A DNA stretch of 41,511 nucleotides from a virus (Duplodnaviria; Heunggongvirae; Uroviricota; Caudoviricetes): the IMG/VR virus record IMGVR_UViG_2802429229_000003; one strand, given 5' to 3'. Made by a program: the position numbers and the translations under genes. Below are positions 2,974-35,482 of the stretch, in pieces (the stretch's first letter is position 1; the number at the start of each line of letters is the position of its first letter). The notes below the pieces were generated by a model, which made no database searches, was not told the DNA's origin, and was given only the letters and a program-made list of their open reading frames with translations.

Positions 2974-5900
2974 TTAACATTCCCCCATCACGTCGCATAT
3001 TTAACAGATTGCCCTGCACCCGCTGATCAACCATCCCCATAAGTGCTTTTATTGCCTGAGGGCCAATCTCTCCATTCTGGCCGTCATTTTGAATAGTGAT
3101 TTGGTATACAGGGGCATAGGTAATATCTCCGCCTCCATTACCACTTTTACTATTAATAGCTCTGACACCAAGAGAACCATCGGAAGTTCGTGTTAATGGC
3201 ATAATGGCTTCCGGTCCAGCCTCACCAAAAACACCAGCCCCTTTTGCAAAAGCAAAAAATTGCGGGGAATCATAAATACCGTTCGAATACGTGCTCAATG
3301 ACGGAGACTCATAAACACCGCCCTTTGCATTCGGAATAAATTTACTAATAGCACTCCCGATAGTTCCTAAAATCCCCCCAGAAGAACTGTTACTAATGCT
3401 GTCGAAAATCCCAGTAATTGAAGCCTTTAATGCTATTCGACTAAGATCCGAAATCACGGAAGTAGCGAAAGAACGAAAATTTGCCTTGCCTGTCGTGACA
3501 AAATCACCCAGCGCATCGGTCATTCCATCAAACATCTGAGTCGTGGTTGATTTTATCTGCTCACTGATATCCTTAGTGTCATCCAGCCAGTTATTGAATC
3601 CCTGGGAGGCACCACTAACCCAGTCTCCTGCCTGAATATCGAGCTGCTCGTTTTTCTGTCTGACAATTTCTTTTTCCCGTTCCAGAGCATCATTCAGAGC
3701 CTGCATTTTCTCTTGAAAAACATGATCTGACATTCCACGGGATTTATCTGCATAGTCACGTTCAAGTTGCAGACGCTGATTGTTATATCCATGTTCAATC
3801 CGCAGTAATTCCTGCTGGCGTTGCTGATTTTTATCGCCAACCCCATAACCAGCAATCTGAATATCATACCCCTGCTGACGATTATCAATCGAAGCCTGCA
3901 ATGAATCACGCCATGCTGTTATTTCGGCGGATTCCTTGATTAGCCTGTTATTTTTTTCAATCGCAACATTTTTCTCCATCAACGTGGTTATTTCTTCCCG
4001 GTGTAAGAGAAGCGATTTCTGATCCTGGGTTAATTTCGATGATGGTCGTGACTCTAGGTCGGCAATCCGCTGACGCCACTTAACCAGTTCCTGTTCAGAG
4101 GAACTTAATTTAACGGTCAACTCAGCTTGTGAACTTAGTAACGCATTCTGTTGATTCAGATGATCAATCATTCGTTGGGCTGCATCATCAGAATAATCTT
4201 TCGCCTTTGGTTGCTTTGGATCTTTATAACGCTCATTTATTTGAGCGATAAGATTATTATATTCTTCCTTTGAATACTGATTCTTTAGCTTTTCCAGTTT
4301 TGCAAGTTCACTAGCTCTCTGCTGCTCCCGGGTCTGATATTGTTTTGAAAAGGCATCTGCTCTCTGTCTGAGTTCAATTCCTTCCTGTTGTCGCTTGTTG
4401 TAATCGTTTATTGATGAATTTAGTACGTCCTGAGCAATTTTTTCTGCTTGAAGTACGCCCAATTGCTGCTTTAATCGTGCCAGCCTTTTATTTTGAGCTC
4501 CGCCATCTCCAATGCCACCTAACCCGAAAACTCCGGGTCGGGTATTTTTTTCTATTTCATCAATTTGACGGAGAACATCTGAGATTTTTTGATCAAGGGA
4601 GGCCTCACGGCCAATATCCAGCATGGAATCCCATGCCCATTTTGCGGAGTCTGCGACAGCTTTCCATGCAGTCTCAAGATAACCAAGATTTTCTTTAATC
4701 TGGTTGGTGCGCTGGATCATTGAGGATGAGTATTCTTCTGTCGCAATGCGGGCGGCCTCCTGCTGGTTCCCTTCATCCTGTAGCGCCTTAATCTGGTTAT
4801 AAGTCGCAAGTGTCAGAAAATGGTACTGATCATTAAGTTTTGATATGGCACTGACAGGATCCTTTGCAATTTCATTGAAGTCATTAACCAGTTGTTCGGT
4901 TGATATTCCTGTTACTTCGCTCGTTTTTACTATCGCTGTCGTCACTTGCTCCAGCGAACTGCTCGCTACCTTTCCCGAACGCACAAGCTGATTTAATACT
5001 GCCGCCGCAGCACCAGTTGTCGAATCAGCCGCATTCCCGGCACGTTGAGCTATATCGCCCAATTGCCCGCTGGTTGTCCCCAACTGATTTCCGGTAAGAA
5101 TAAGAGATTTATTAAATTCGTCCTGCTCCTGAGAGCCTTTATAGTAAGCCAGTCCTAAGACCCCAACGGCTGCTGCGGCCAGGGTAAAAGGATTAATTAA
5201 TCCCAGCACATAAGAACCTACACCTTTGATCGCCGGGCCAATCCCACCGAACATATCTTTTAGCTGGCCGCCCTGCTGCATTAACACCATAAATGGCGAC
5301 TGACCAGTGGACAACCCAACAACAATATCCGTCATTTGTGCAGGCAACATGCGCATAGCAAAAGCCGTTTGTTTTGCCGACATTCCGGTTTTGCTTAATT
5401 GTGATTGAGTAACCTCAAGCTCACTCCGCATAGCACGAAGTTTTCCAGAAAGCTCCTCATACATTTCAGGAGAAAGCATCCCCTTAGCTTTTGCTTCATT
5501 GAGCTGTTTCTGTTGTTCTACCAGACGATTAAAAGCAGTTCCGACAGGATCAAGTTGAGCAATCAGACGTTGCAAAGCAACAACCTGTTCATCATGCGCT
5601 TTTGCTGCTTCTCGCTCTGCCTGAGCCTCTCCAGTAAGCTCTCGCCGTGTTTCCTGTATTTTTCGGCTATAATTCTCAAACTGAGAACCATTTATTTTCC
5701 CGGATGCAAACGCAGCATTAAGTTCATCATGCTGTTGTTCAAGATTTCTTAGCGCCGCAGCCAGAGGGTCGATCTTGTCCAGCATTCTTTGAAAGGCCTG
5801 AGCCTGCGCTTCCTGCTGGGCGGCAGCAAGTTTTCCGGCCTTCTCGGCTTCTCTCTGCGCTTGCGCAACCCCGCTCAATTCCTCTGTGGTTTCATTAAGT

Positions 5901-31701: not shown

Positions 31702-32559
31702 TTACCCCCTGAAGCCTGGCGGGATCGCACTATCCGGTAACGAGACGGTGTTAACCTGTCGGAGTAACGTCTCAGGTCGAACACCTTTCGGCGCGAACAA
31801 GCCCTGGTATTCATTGGCGATGCTGTGTCGAATCACCTGCTCAGGTGAAAAACCCTGCTGGCGGAATTTTTCCAGCTCCCGTATCGCCCCGTTAGCGCCC
31901 TGCTCCGTTCGAATCGGTTTTCGCAATGCCTGGCGAAATTCAACCCACTCACGCCAAAGCGAGACAGAAATCCAGTTCGGCAAAGCAATATCCAGAGGGT
32001 CAAACTTTTTGACACCTCGATTCCCCCGGGGGGGATTTAGGGGGGGATCTGTTTTTAGATCTTTATCTGTATCTTTATTAGTTGCCTTTGTGTTGACATC
32101 ATGTTCAAACACCACTTCAACATCTGTTTGAACACCTGTTAAATTTCTCTCTTGTTTTGTTTGAACATCTGCTTCCTTTCTGCTTCTTCTGGCCTGAACA
32201 GATGCTTTTCCTGCGGCTGATTTTTTGGTTAATTTTTCCCTGACTGATGCCAGATCTTCCTCAATCCGAAGATGCACCCATTCCTCGCCGTTATCGCAAA
32301 AAAACTCCTGCAAGGATGGTTCAACATCAGCCCATCGCTCGTTAGTCAGACGGGCAATTTTTGCCAGCCTGTTTTTAGGTATTGGCTTTCCTGTTTGCCA
32401 GTAATTGAACATCAGCAACAAATACGCACCATGCTCCTCTGCTGACAAATGCATGGTGTCAGCCAGGTAATCAGCTATGTACAGTTGCATGTATGGTAAT
32501 GCGGCCATAATTGCCCCGTATGATGCTGCCCGGTGGCTTAGAATAAGCACAAACAGCAT
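31702..32559 (-). CDS. ydaU: Replication initiation protein (YdaU-like)
   Basis: 285-aa ORF, same length as YdaU as recalled; upstream of the DnaC-like gene. Confidence 0.65.
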   Translation of the reverse strand: MLFVLILSHRAASYGAIMAALPYMQLYIADYLADTMHLSAEEHGAYLLLMFNYWQTGKPIPKNRLAKIARLTNERWADVEPSLQEFFCDNGEEWVHLRIEEDLASVREKLTKKSAAGKASVQARRSRKEADVQTKQERNLTGVQTDVEVVFEHDVNTKATNKDTDKDLKTDPPLNPPRGNRGVKKFDPLDIALPNWISVSLWREWVEFRQALRKPIRTEQGANGAIRELEKFRQQGFSPEQVIRHSIANEYQGLFAPKGVRPETLLRQVNTVSLPDSAIPPGFRG

Positions 32560-32571
32560 GGAAACTTTTGC

Positions 32572-32994
32572 TTAATGAACAATGACAGAATCGTCGGAAG
32601 ACCCGCCGCCGCTGAAATGCGCTTTCCGGTAAACGGCTTGGACTGCATCATCATGCGCATCAATTGCCGTACTTAACGCTTCCTGCGCCGCCAGTAATGC
32701 ACGGCGTTCCAGGGTATCGAAGATGCAGAGTCGGTGACGCAGCTCGCGCGGAAGGATTGCCAGAATTGCTGGGATCAGCTTCTGAATTTTTTCTCTTTGC
32801 GTTTTCGTTTCACCTTTCAACCAACGGTGATAGATATTCTGCTGATTATTCCAGTCCTTGCCTGGTACCAGGGGCAATTCGCCGCCCCCCTGGCGCAGAT
32901 ATTCTTCAGTAATGGCATTGGCTACCCATGCCTGCCCTTTTTCGGCTGCCAGGGCTAACAACACTGACTCGATGTGCTCATGCTTGATTTTCAT
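32572..32994 (-). CDS. ydaT: YdaT-like protein (reported cell-division-inhibiting toxin of Rac), 140 aa
   Basis: Size and position after the Cro-like gene, as in the Rac immunity region. Confidence 0.6.
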   Translation of the reverse strand: MKIKHEHIESVLLALAAEKGQAWVANAITEEYLRQGGGELPLVPGKDWNNQQNIYHRWLKGETKTQREKIQKLIPAILAILPRELRHRLCIFDTLERRALLAAQEALSTAIDAHDDAVQAVYRKAHFSGGGSSDDSVIVH

Positions 32995-33245
32995 GAATCA
33001 ACTCCCATCAGCTTTTTCGTAGTAGTTTTATTTCTGCCAATAGTTAAAATTACATCAGCAGAAAATAATCCGTTTGATGCATGAGCGATTTTTTCAGCGT
33101 AATTTGTTTCGCCGGTATATTCTGTGCGAGGCAATTTTCCGTTATCCATCCATTTGTAGATTGCTCTTTGGCTGACACCACAAACGTCGGCCACAACAGA
33201 AACGCGAACAGTTTTGATTACATCTTCAAGTGTTTTCTGGTTCAT
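32991..33245 (-). CDS. Cro-like HTH protein (YdaS-position), about 84 aa
   Basis: ATG at 33245 with GAGGGUGAU RBS; HTH VSVVADVCGVSQRAIYKWM; divergent from the repressor gene. Shorter than the 98 aa I recall for YdaS. Confidence 0.55.
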   Translation of the reverse strand: MNQKTLEDVIKTVRVSVVADVCGVSQRAIYKWMDNGKLPRTEYTGETNYAEKIAHASNGLFSADVILTIGRNKTTTKKLMGVDS

Positions 33246-33260
33246 ATCACCCTCACAATG

Positions 33261-33304
33261 TGAACTTTGAGTACATGCTATAACAGAACTGACAGTACAT
33301 TCAA
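33261..33304. promoter_or_regulatory. Candidate rightward operator region: two 16-bp direct repeats sharing GAACT and AGTACAT
   Basis: TGAACTTTGAGTACAT (33261-33276) and AGAACTGACAGTACAT (33285-33300) in the 79-bp divergent region between the Cro-like and repressor genes. Confidence 0.45.
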
Positions 33305-33324
33305 GAGCGAATATCATTGAACTT

Positions 33325-33744
33325 ATGGTTCATGAAGATAAAGCGCGTAAAGAGTTCGCCAGTAGGCTTGCGCTAGCCTGTGAAAACGCTGGTTATGAAC
33401 AACATGGAAGGCAGGCAGAAATTGCCCGTCGAATGAAATTAACACCAAAAGCGGTTAGCAAATGGTTTAATGGCGAAACAATTCCTCGCCGAGAGAAATT
33501 AAGGGAATTAGCAACACTCATTGGAACAACACCAACCTATCTTTTGGGAGAGGATACAGAAGAAAGTGGACAGGTACGTTTCTATCAGGAGTTAAATCCA
33601 AGACAAAAAATCATCATTGACCTTCTGGACGAGCTCCCTGACAGTGAGACAGATGAACTTTTAAAAACTCTTGAGGAGAAAAAACAGAAGTACAATGCAA
33701 TTTACGAAGAGCTAGCACGAAAGAAAAAACAAAAAGCCTCTTAA
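33325..33744 (+). CDS. racR: CI-type prophage repressor (RacR-like), 139 aa
   Basis: XRE-family HTH QAEIARRMKLTPKAVSKWFNGETIPRREKLRELATLIGTTPTYL; divergent from the Cro-like gene. Confidence 0.65.
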   Translation: MVHEDKARKEFASRLALACENAGYEQHGRQAEIARRMKLTPKAVSKWFNGETIPRREKLRELATLIGTTPTYLLGEDTEESGQVRFYQELNPRQKIIIDLLDELPDSETDELLKTLEEKKQKYNAIYEELARKKKQKAS

Positions 33745-33818
33745 ACCAGCATAAATCCGGTAGCGTCCCCCTCCGGGTTTGTGCTTCACTTTATCCCATC
33801 TCATTTTTTTACACACAA

Positions 33819-33866
33819 AATGTACTTAAAGTACTTTACACAATGAACACAAAGTACATTATATAC
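33819..33866 (+). promoter_or_regulatory. Candidate early-left promoter with operator copies (AGTACAT motif x3 and GTACTTAAAGTAC palindrome)
   Basis: ATGTACTT, AAGTACTTT and AAGTACATT within 45 bp; -35-like TTTACA (33835-33840) and -10-like ATTATA / TATATA 17-19 nt downstream. Confidence 0.4.
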
Positions 33867-34033
33867 CTACCAACCCACCCCGCCCCACAGAACGCAGGGC
33901 AATACTTCGAGTTACCAGGCAGTGGTCAGGGGTTAAGTAGCCAGCCCGAGGCGTATGAACATGACGGCAGGGTTCAGATTTTGCAGTGCAGCAGGTTTCA
34001 GTTCCGCCACCCGGCGTTAAGGGGAGAGATAAG

Positions 34034-34168
34034 ATGGTGCATTACGAAGTAGTTCAGTATTTGATGGATTGTTGCGGTATCACTTACAACCAGGCTGTGC
34101 AGGCTTTACGCAGCAACGACTGGGATCTCTGGCAGGCAGAAGTCGCTATACACAGCAACAAGATGTGA
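34034..34168 (+). CDS. ydaG: YdaG-like small protein, 44 aa
   Basis: ATG at 34034 after GGGGAGAG RBS; MVHYEVVQYLMDCCGITYNQAVQALRSNDWDLWQAEVAIHSNKM; same length as Rac YdaG as recalled. Confidence 0.55.
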   Translation: MVHYEVVQYLMDCCGITYNQAVQALRSNDWDLWQAEVAIHSNKM

Positions 34169-34178
34169 GATTCGCAAA

Positions 34179-34334
34179 ATGCAAAAAATCGACCTCGGCA
34201 ACAACGAATCCCTGGTGTGCGGCGTGTTCCCCAACCAGGATGGAACGTTCACTGCCATGACGTATACCAAAAGCAAAACATTTAAAACCGAAACTGGTGC
34301 GCGCCGATGGTTGGAGAAGCATACAGTAAGCTAA
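34179..34334 (+). CDS. ydaF: YdaF-like small protein, 51 aa
   Basis: ATG at 34179; MQKIDLGNNESLVCGVFPNQDGTFTAMTYTKSKTFKTETGARRWLEKHTVS. Below the ORF track cutoff. Confidence 0.5.
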   Translation: MQKIDLGNNESLVCGVFPNQDGTFTAMTYTKSKTFKTETGARRWLEKHTVS

Positions 34335-34819
34335 CGATTAAAACGTCTACTCCTGCTGTTCCAGAATAACTTCATAAAATGGGAGTATTTTTCGGTGACG
34401 AGATAATAAGAACAGTTTGCGCTATCACTCTGATGTTGAATGATGCCCTTCCGTTCTAATTTTTTCATAACCGGGTTACGGCAAGGAGAAGTGATAATAA
34501 GATTTCCTGTTTTAAGGAAATCTTTAAATACAGCGATTTCTTTCTCAGATAAACGAAGCAATACTCGTTGCTCTGGTAGTAATGAATAATGCTTTTGAAT
34601 ATGTGCTCGCAATCTTGAGAAGGAAATGGCGACCACGAAAGAAAAGGCAAAAACGATAATCTGAAAGAGCCAAGGTATTTCAGTATAAGCATTGAATGCG
34701 ACAGTAAACTCTTTCGGTATCAGCCAGAGAGTGAGACCAAAAATGATAATCGTATACATAAGTATTTCGAGTGGCTCGTTAGCAAAAAGTTTCAACAATG
34801 GAGTAAATACATCCAACAT
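34331..34819 (-). CDS. sieB: Superinfection exclusion protein SieB, 162 aa
   Basis: ATG at 34819 (MLDVFTPLLKLFANEPLEILMYTIIIFGLTLWLI...); two N-terminal hydrophobic helices; length matches Rac SieB. Confidence 0.8.
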   Translation of the reverse strand: MLDVFTPLLKLFANEPLEILMYTIIIFGLTLWLIPKEFTVAFNAYTEIPWLFQIIVFAFSFVVAISFSRLRAHIQKHYSLLPEQRVLLRLSEKEIAVFKDFLKTGNLIITSPCRNPVMKKLERKGIIQHQSDSANCSYYLVTEKYSHFMKLFWNSRSRRFNR

Positions 34820-35037
34820 ATCAATAACTCTCAACTGTAAGGGTATTGAAATGTTAACACAAGCTCTCGCTGTAGGGGTATAGCCGAGACCACCGAAGCC
34901 CGGAGGTGGTGAAATAAAACCGGGCACAACACGAAGGCGCATTTCCGATATCCATAAAGAGTCGGTCTTGTCTGTTAAATTTAAATGGTGGGAGTGCGCC
35001 TCCGGTTGTAAATAACGACATTGCTGTGTGTAGTCCT

Positions 35038-35085
35038 GGCGGCATCAGTTTTTTTCTTGAAGTTCGGCTGATGTCCGCCCTTTTT
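35038..35085 (+). terminator. Plus-strand terminator-like hairpin between sieB and kilR (11-bp bulged stem, 19-nt loop, then CUUUUU)
   Basis: GGCGGCATCAG (35038-35048) pairs with CTGATGTCCGCC (35068-35079) with one bulged T; followed by C plus T5. Confidence 0.35.
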
Positions 35086-35260
35086 AAAGTGAATTTTGTG
35101 ATGCGGTGAATGCGGCTAAGCGCACGTGGCACAGTTAAAAGTCATGTTAGTCCTTATTGGTTTGGGTGGGAAAGCCGACTGTAATTGTTAACTGGTTGCA
35201 GTCACCTGGAGGCACCAGGCACCGCATCAACAAAGTTCATTTGTAAAAATGGAGATAATT

Positions 35261-35482
35261 ATGATTGCACATCACTTCGGAACTGATGAAATACCACGTC
35301 AGTGTGTGACTCCTGGCGATTATGTTCTTCATGAAGGCCGGACATATATTGCCTCGGCAAACAATATTAAAAAGCGAAAACTATATATTCGTAACCTGAC
35401 CACAAAAACATGCATTACTGACCGCATGATTAAAGTCTTCCTCGGTCGTGATGGTTTACCTGTAAAGGCGGAGTCATGGTGA
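35261..35482 (+). CDS. kilR: KilR, Rac prophage killing protein (FtsZ inhibitor), 73 aa
   Basis: ATG at 35261 after GGAGA RBS; [42 protein letters not shown]... matches KilR as recalled. Confidence 0.8.

Follow-up and report, generated by a model that had tools for sequence, protein, structure and literature searches.

The window analysed here, a stretch of 41,511 nucleotides, is a Rac-type lambdoid prophage located at ttcA, in an orientation reversed relative to K-12. Its genes follow the order ydaV, ydaU, ydaT, a cro-like gene, a repressor gene, ydaG, ydaF, sieB, kilR, ydaE, racC, recE, recT, xis and int. The cro-like and repressor genes are divergent, with an intergenic region of 79 bp between them, and both reading frames are intact (Table 1). 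Rightwards of about position 33871 the window is again near-identical to K-12, and this near-identity, together with the 99% identity of YdaT on the other side, indicates that an immunity cassette of about 870 bp (approximately 33001-33870) has been swapped. The left edge of the swapped cassette is the YdaT-box, which is the sole exact TTGATT-N6-AATCAA in the window and holds the ATG of ydaT inside its spacer. This box has been footprinted at the same position in K-12 Rac (PMC11879457) and has been footprinted in CP-933P too (PMC9986795), with one base different in each case.

Table 1. Genes, predicted promoters and predicted operator sites around the repressor gene (window positions)
Feature	Position	Strand	Description
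YdaT	32572-32994	-	Pfam YdaT_toxin; 99% identity to K-12 YdaT
YdaT-box	32984-33001	-	TTGATTCATGAAAATCAA (minus strand); spans the cro-like stop and the ydaT start
Cro-like protein, 84 aa	32991-33245	-	62% identity to HK022 Cro over 73 residues, E = 2e-34
O1 (OR1-like), predicted	33261-33275		TGAACTTTGAGTACA; exact motif; matrix score 16.7, rank 2; aligns with HK022 oR 3057-3071
PR-like promoter, predicted	33277-33304	-	-35 TTGAAT (33304-33299), 16-bp spacer, -10 TATAGC (33282-33277)
O2 (OR2-like), predicted	33285-33299		AGAACTGACAGTACA; one mismatch; matrix rank 4; aligns with HK022 oR 3033-3047, TGTACTATCAGTTCC
PRM-like promoter, predicted	33289-33317	+	CTGACA-N17-TATCAT; consensus scan, 10 of 12 matches
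O3 (OR3-like), predicted	33318-33332		TGAACTTATGGTTCA; exact motif; highest matrix score, 19.6
Immunity repressor, 139 aa	33325-33744	+	Pfam HTH_3, E = 1.8e-9, no other domain
O4 (OL2-like), predicted	33821-33835		TGTACTTAAAGTACT; one mismatch; matrix rank 3; aligns with HK022 oL 2225-2239
PL-like promoter, predicted	33835-33862	+	TTTACA-N16-CATTAT; consensus scan; aligns with HK022 pL -35/-10
O5 (OL1-like), predicted	33844-33858		TGAACACAAAGTACA; exact motif; matrix rank 5; aligns with HK022 oL 2201-2215

According to the original prediction, the heptamer AGTACAT recurs on both sides of the repressor gene as an operator motif. When the sites were compared jointly, AGTACAT turned out to be one half of a 15-bp pseudo-palindrome, TGWAC-N5-GTWCA. 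Exact AGTACAT occurs seven times in the 41.5-kb window against 3.4 expected from shuffles, a total that is unremarkable alone (seven or more copies were reached in 7 of 100 shuffles). The density is not uniform across the window, and a search for clustering bore the prediction out: four of the seven copies (33270, 33294, 33820 on the minus strand, and 33853) are located in two short control regions, the 79-bp cro/repressor intergenic region and about 60 bp past the repressor gene, which make up about 146 bp or 0.35% of the window (binomial estimate, about 5e-9). Exact TGWAC-N5-GTWCA is present three times (33261-75, 33318-32 and 33844-58), all three in the control regions, where the information content of the pattern leads one to expect about 0.16 in the window. 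With at most one mismatch the number in the window is eight, five of them in the control regions, which adds the sites at 33285-99 and 33821-35. We also made a symmetric weight matrix solely from the five operators annotated in the HK022 record X16093, which is therefore independent of the window. With this matrix the same five sites rank 1 to 5 among about 41,500 window positions (19.6-12.5 bits, next best 9.7), and in shuffled windows a mean of 0.86 sites attain the score of the fifth site.

Three of the five sites are on the side of the cro-like gene and two are past the repressor gene. Two 16-mers had been described between the cro-like and repressor genes as direct repeats; both are present, TGAACTTTGAGTACAT at 33261-33276 and AGAACTGACAGTACAT at 33285-33300, but they are 15-bp pseudo-palindromes rather than simple direct repeats, and a third site, which lies over the repressor ATG at 33318-33332, had been missed. 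Past the repressor gene, the palindrome GTACTTAAAGTAC was found as predicted (33822-33834), while one of the three AGTACAT copies reported there reads AGTACTT (33830-36), one mismatch away, and the three half-sites make up two operators. The series starts with O1, which is 1 bp past the -10 of the rightward (Cro) promoter. O2 occupies the spacer of the same promoter and reaches into the -35 hexamer of the repressor promoter, and O3 overlaps the repressor start codon (ATG 33325-27). O4 adjoins the -35 of the leftward early promoter, and O5 is within the spacer of that promoter and overlaps its -10. Measured from centre to centre, the spacings are 24 bp for O1-O2, 33 bp for O2-O3 and 23 bp for O4-O5. 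The last value is 24 bp in all relatives examined and is 23 bp here because of a private 1-bp deletion in the O4-O5 stretch of the window, which was found in none of 5426 complete E. coli genomes and might weaken this copy.

The promoters were assigned with different degrees of certainty. For the leftward promoter, a TTTACA/TATATA pair had been proposed. TTTACA holds (33835-33840) and is invariant in all relatives examined, but TATATA (33861-66) is 20 bp off and therefore too far for a -10; the hexamer in register is CATTAT (33857-62), which is separated from TTTACA by a spacer of 16 and aligns with the annotated -10 of HK022 pL. Judged from the sequence, this promoter probably drives ydaG, ydaF, kilR, recET, xis and int. 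The PR-like promoter is in register with the annotated HK022 pR, TTGACT-N16-CATAAT, and would serve the cro-like gene, ydaT and the replication genes. Its -10, TATAGC, is preceded by TGT and is without the consensus final T, and the promoter was below threshold in the consensus scan, so it was assigned by homology. The weakest assignment among the promoters and parts is the PRM-like promoter, of which positions 1, 2 and 6 of the -10 (T, A, T) and the -35 CTGA(C/T)A are kept in the relatives and in HK022. The repressor mRNA is predicted to start at or adjoining the ATG at 33325, that is, to be leaderless or near-leaderless, and no Shine-Dalgarno sequence precedes this ATG. No intrinsic terminator was found 3' of the repressor gene, and the 171-nt PL leader has structure no greater than shuffled sequence (z = +1.7).

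The immunity region of HK022 was reportedly studied by Oberto et al. in 1989 and by Carlson and Little in 1993. What we state on HK022 operators and binding is based on the annotation of GenBank X16093 and on PMC8053113. The record annotates 15-bp repressor binding sites that belong to the same family as the window sites: TGTACTTAAAGTTCA and AGTACCAATAGTACA in oL, and TGAACCATAAGTTCA, present twice, and a second sequence, TGTACTATCAGTTCC, in oR. The copy of TGAACCATAAGTTCA at 3000-3014 is over the cI start and its reverse complement is identical to O3, which is thus identical to oR1 and oR3. The HK022 oR sites are spaced by 24 and 33 bp, with the third on the cI start codon, and the oL sites by 24 bp. 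In a pairwise DNA alignment of the window OR and OL with HK022 oR and oL, the operators and the pR and pL hexamers are in register. The two systems are therefore alike in having TGWAC-N5-GTWCA operators, three OR sites at 24/33 bp and two OL sites flanking the pL -35. They differ in the repressor, since HK022 CI has 235 aa with an S24 peptidase/oligomerisation domain whereas the window repressor has 139 aa with a short helical tail; in the CII function, which YdaT would supply in the window; and in the flanking genes, which are of Rac type in the window (ydaG, ydaF, sieB, kilR, recET), with no nun gene.

Two further HK022 sites were looked for. No site with two or fewer mismatches was present at the window position expected for an HK022-type OL3 (53 bp from OL2) or at that expected for a distal OFR (about 300 bp right of OR); the OFR sequence is at 3324-3338 in HK022, and an OL3 analogue is present in Klebsiella phage 2b. 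An HK022 put/nut-type element past the leftward promoter was considered and rejected, as the window has no homology to the HK022 stretch past pL that contains put, and Rfam gave no match in 32400-35300 except for sRNA-like ones near kilR. Our literature search found no paper in which Rac-type prophages are linked to the immunity of HK022. At OR and at OL, HK022 CI occupies adjacent operators cooperatively, and it forms a loop between the two regions (PMC8053113). The window repressor is without the dimerisation and cooperativity domain of HK022 CI, and stoichiometry, cooperativity and looping are therefore not transferable from HK022.

The repressor consists of an HK022-CI-type HTH domain (about residues 1-76) followed by a short helical C-terminal tail. 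Residues 4-102, a stretch of 99, are 47% identical to HK022 CI (E = 6e-32), and tblastn against phage genomes gave about 51% identity to the 933W-type CI for residues 1-73. Throughout the family the HTH segment TPKAVSKWFNGE is near-invariant, and it differs from HK022 TPKAISKWFNGE by one conservative change. The LexA-like S24 peptidase domain, to which an HK022-type CI owes RecA-dependent induction and cooperative oligomerisation, gave no match in the repressor, which ends at residue 139. In the AlphaFold2 model the HTH (1-75) is confident, the linker (80-89) is of low confidence, and two helices (92-102 and 106-138) are of moderate confidence; the modelled C-terminal helices would fit a small helical dimerisation module, which is a fit and no proof. 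Among solved structures, a search for close relatives of the repressor returned only weak matches to the N-terminal domains of P22 C2 and 434 repressor (E at least 0.006). LexA boxes (CTGT-N8-ACAG), which would point to an SOS-controlled antirepressor, are absent from the whole window.

To see how far the arrangement is kept, we compared the loci of E. coli (L008-L010), Salmonella (L005-L007), phage Tritos, Klebsiella phage 2b LV-2017, Citrobacter phage Omnitron and the ttcA prophage of O157:H7. All loci examined have three OR sites spaced by 24 and 33 bp, with the third over the ATG, and all relatives examined have two OL sites beside the conserved TTTACA. Across the four genera the half-sites are kept and the central five bases vary, as would be expected if the sites are held by protein contacts. 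A higBA-like pair lies between the repressor gene and OL in Salmonella, and about 2.7 kb intervene in the Klebsiella phage, so the OL pair follows the leftward promoter and not the repressor gene. The 139-aa form of the repressor has E. coli versions of 88-100% identity and Salmonella versions of 62-65% (138 and 151 aa), and Raoultella, Klebsiella and others have relatives of 235-240 aa in which the same N-terminal domain is fused to S24. Of 5426 complete E. coli genomes, 1045 (about 19%) carry the 106-bp OR segment, one of them an O157:H7 strain that has it in its prophage at ttcA. An identical 139-aa repressor and the same five sites are present in phage Tritos, which is prophage 3 of E. coli LF82.

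On this evidence, the region is very probably a lambdoid OR/OL switch with HK022-type immunity, carried by a Rac-type prophage. The idea of one operator motif shared by both sides of the repressor gene gains support from the HK022 oR/oL alignment, the protein homologies and the conserved layout of three plus two sites. As for the lambda-like OR/OL architecture that had been proposed, the operators do overlap divergent early promoters, but the nearest model is HK022 (and 933W), not lambda. Within this reading we infer the binding itself, the order of occupancy, cooperativity, looping and the promoter hexamers that are used. The five sites would be shared by the 139-aa repressor and the 84-aa Cro-like protein as their predicted binding sites. 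During lysogeny, repressor dimers on O1 and O2 would cover the rightward promoter in its start region and spacer and keep the cro-like gene, ydaT and the replication genes off, and dimers on O5 and O4 would cover the leftward promoter in its spacer and at the edge of its -35 and keep ydaG, ydaF, kilR, recET, xis and int off. Because O3 overlaps the start of the probably leaderless repressor mRNA, negative autoregulation is expected at high repressor levels. At the lytic turn, Cro on the same sites would stop repressor synthesis after de-repression, and for establishment YdaT, a functional equivalent of CII, would act at the box of the cro/ydaT junction as a CII-like input. As the S24 autocleavage domain is missing from the repressor, we predict that induction does not depend on RecA-stimulated self-cleavage.

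The regulation of the repressor promoter allows another reading. The -35 hexamer CTGACA (33289-94) is overlapped by O2 (33285-99), which is centred at about -33, a reason not to presume that OR2 activates as in lambda; this geometry suggests that repression is favoured over such activation, and that either the PRM assignment or its regulation may differ. It is conceivable, if rather unlikely, that the operators are real and the wiring is HK022/Rac-like and not lambda-like, with O2 repressing the repressor promoter and synthesis in the lysogen depending on some other promoter, for example a YdaT-activated antisense promoter or read-through. Beside the overlap itself, this would agree with the activation by YdaT of a reverse promoter for racR in K-12 Rac (PMC11879457) and with the view of the loopometer authors that the HK022 operator arrangement suggests another use of looping at the immunity promoter (PMC8053113). 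However, the TATNNT -10 and the CTGA(C/T)A -35 are kept in the relatives and are positioned for a start at the ATG, and in LF82 lysogens, when ydaT should be repressed, the Tritos repressor gene is well expressed, with transcription 24-fold over local background (PMC9928086).

That the sites are instead non-functional remnants of an HK022-like ancestor in a cryptic prophage copy seems to us very improbable. Rac-type prophages are frequently defective, and the deletion between O4 and O5 is private to the window copy. Nevertheless, 999 of the 1045 carrier E. coli genomes have the OR segment at 99% identity or more, the half-sites are conserved over genera while the spacers drift, and the repressor and Cro frames have stayed open. 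Moreover, Tritos, which is produced spontaneously and forms plaques on an MG1655 derivative (PMC9928086), works with the identical repressor and the same sites. A chance cluster of an AT-rich heptamer, or a set of sites for another factor (IHF, or integrase arm-type sites), would accord with the AGTACAT total, which is within the shuffle range, but is effectively refuted by the clustering, the inverted-repeat structure, the fixed spacings, the top-five matrix ranks and the homology to annotated operators.

The HK022-type switch that we prefer can be set beside three other systems. Phages 933W and phi24B (EF517298) likewise have three annotated OR and two annotated OL sites with a 15-bp core, GWAC-N5-GTWC (for example TGAACCAATAGTTCG and CGTACTGAAAGTACG), whereas their outer operator bases are C/G and not T/A as in the window, they have a full-length CI that includes S24, and they differ in phage backbone. 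K-12 Rac, with RacR, YdaS and YdaT, shares with the window the backbone, the ttcA site, YdaT and the YdaT-box, and the downstream early genes, and RacR is also without S24; in contrast, the two are unrelated in repressor, Cro-type protein and operators, with a weak 33-residue HTH match only for RacR. The control regions of K-12 Rac, which served as a negative control, contain no TGWAC-N5-GTWCA sites. K-12 Rac has its own motif, ATTAGGC, on either side of the RacR gene. As both repressors and operators are unrelated, the window prophage and K-12 Rac should be heteroimmune. In CP-933P of E. coli O157:H7 (PaaR2, YdaS, YdaT) the lambdoid layout, a non-cleavable HTH repressor, a divergent Cro-like gene, YdaT as the CII equivalent, a leaderless repressor mRNA and one operator motif at both OR and OL are similar to what is seen or predicted here, whereas the operators are 18-bp palindromes based on GTTTAGTAA, the repressor and Cro families are different, and a toxin-antitoxin pair is located 3' of the repressor (PMC8630535). 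PaaR2-type operators were ruled out as a model for the window, since the consensus differs.

The operator set is a further example of a known lambdoid architecture and of low surprise, and current understanding stands; the one unusual feature is the repressor without S24. We tentatively suggest, with the balance tilting somewhat against the suggestion, that this protein represents a naturally arisen form of HK022-type CI, with a short helical tail in place of S24 and with the full operator geometry retained. If the tail by itself suffices for dimerisation and pairwise cooperativity and HK022 operators are recognised, about 19% of complete E. coli genomes, O157:H7 included, would carry an SOS-insensitive repressor; the repressor would give standing immunity against phages with HK022-type immunity; and induction would need a route other than RecA, such as an antirepressor, dilution, or competition by Cro or YdaT. 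The near-identical recognition helix and the shared operators mean that the prophage is possibly homoimmune with HK022. Strains with this cassette are predicted to be heteroimmune to K-12 Rac, and their prophage to be unresponsive to SOS via repressor cleavage. The analysis allows a correct annotation of the control region in a prophage type that is among the commonest of E. coli, and it indicates that the imm region in the classical sense, which measures about 870 bp here, swaps as a unit, with boundaries just outside the operators and the YdaT-box. With respect to drug response, Tritos was not among the prophages induced by ciprofloxacin, and its yield was slightly lowered by trimethoprim (PMC9928086), which is consistent with a repressor incapable of self-cleavage.

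Between the OL operators O4 and O5, which lie downstream of the repressor gene, we found that 1 bp is deleted in the window relative to all relatives examined (33835-33845, ACAACAATG changed to ACACAATG), so that the O4-O5 spacing is 23 bp and not 24, and the spacer of the overlapping PL-like promoter is 16 bp and not 17. None of the 5426 complete E. coli genomes searched contains the 81-bp OL segment in identical form; the closest match among them was 98.8%, corresponding to one gap. Either the mutation is private to this sequence, or the base was lost through a sequencing error.

Additional operators were present in two related phages (Table). HK022 has an unannotated operator with one mismatch directly after cro, which agrees with OFR, a distal operator already published and referred to in PMC8053113, and Klebsiella phage 2b has an OL3 analogue whose centre lies 53 bp from that of OL2; the window has a counterpart to neither of these sites. 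In two Salmonella loci, the repressor gene and OL are separated by an inserted gene pair, in a slot that lambda fills with rexAB and CP-933P with paaA2-parE2.

Table. Coordinates of control-region features in the window and in related loci
Feature	Locus	Coordinates	Remark
YdaT-box, TTGATT-N6-AATCAA	window	32984-33001	perfect; covers cro-like stop and ydaT start
Untranslated leader, ~160 nt	window	33871-34033	between PL-like promoter and ydaG
HigB-toxin/HTH pair	Salmonella L005	3553-4220	between repressor gene and OL
HigB-toxin/HTH pair	Salmonella L006	3588-4255	between repressor gene and OL
Operator after cro	HK022 (L003)	3324-3338	
OL3 analogue	Klebsiella phage 2b (L013)	5188-5202	
ATTAGGC-type repeats, first place	K-12 Rac (L002)	3458-3765	racR-ydaS intergenic region
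ATTAGGC-type repeats, second place	K-12 Rac (L002)	4243-4365	downstream of racR

The repressor (33325-33744) lacks an S24 peptidase domain and ends in a helical tail of acidic and basic residues (about 77-139), in which helices were predicted at residues 92-102 and 106-138. Relatives in Klebsiella, Raoultella, and Citrobacter have the same DNA-binding domain, but fused to S24. Previous work reported that ciprofloxacin did not induce phage Tritos, which carries an identical repressor (PMC9928086).

K-12 Rac follows the same control logic as the window with a different motif, and its ATTAGGC-type repeats occur in two places, the second of which adjoins a TTGACA...TATAGT promoter and looks like the OL of RacR. 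The YdaT-box of the window and the one footprinted in K-12 Rac differ at a single base, and the immunity cassette has its left recombination boundary at the position of the window box. K-12 Rac, although heteroimmune, has a near-identical copy of the leader between the PL-like promoter and ydaG, and several E. coli phages that look unrelated (Evi, vB_EcoM-606R7, and others) have one with about 90% identity. The leader matched no Rfam family and its predicted structure was not in excess.

Upstream of kilR, on the plus strand, two sub-threshold Rfam matches were observed, namely DicF at 35025-35080 (39 bits against a gathering score of 48) and STnc100 at 35082-35268 (35.5 bits against 47), and in this region the sRNA KilS is annotated in K-12 and DicF in Tritos.
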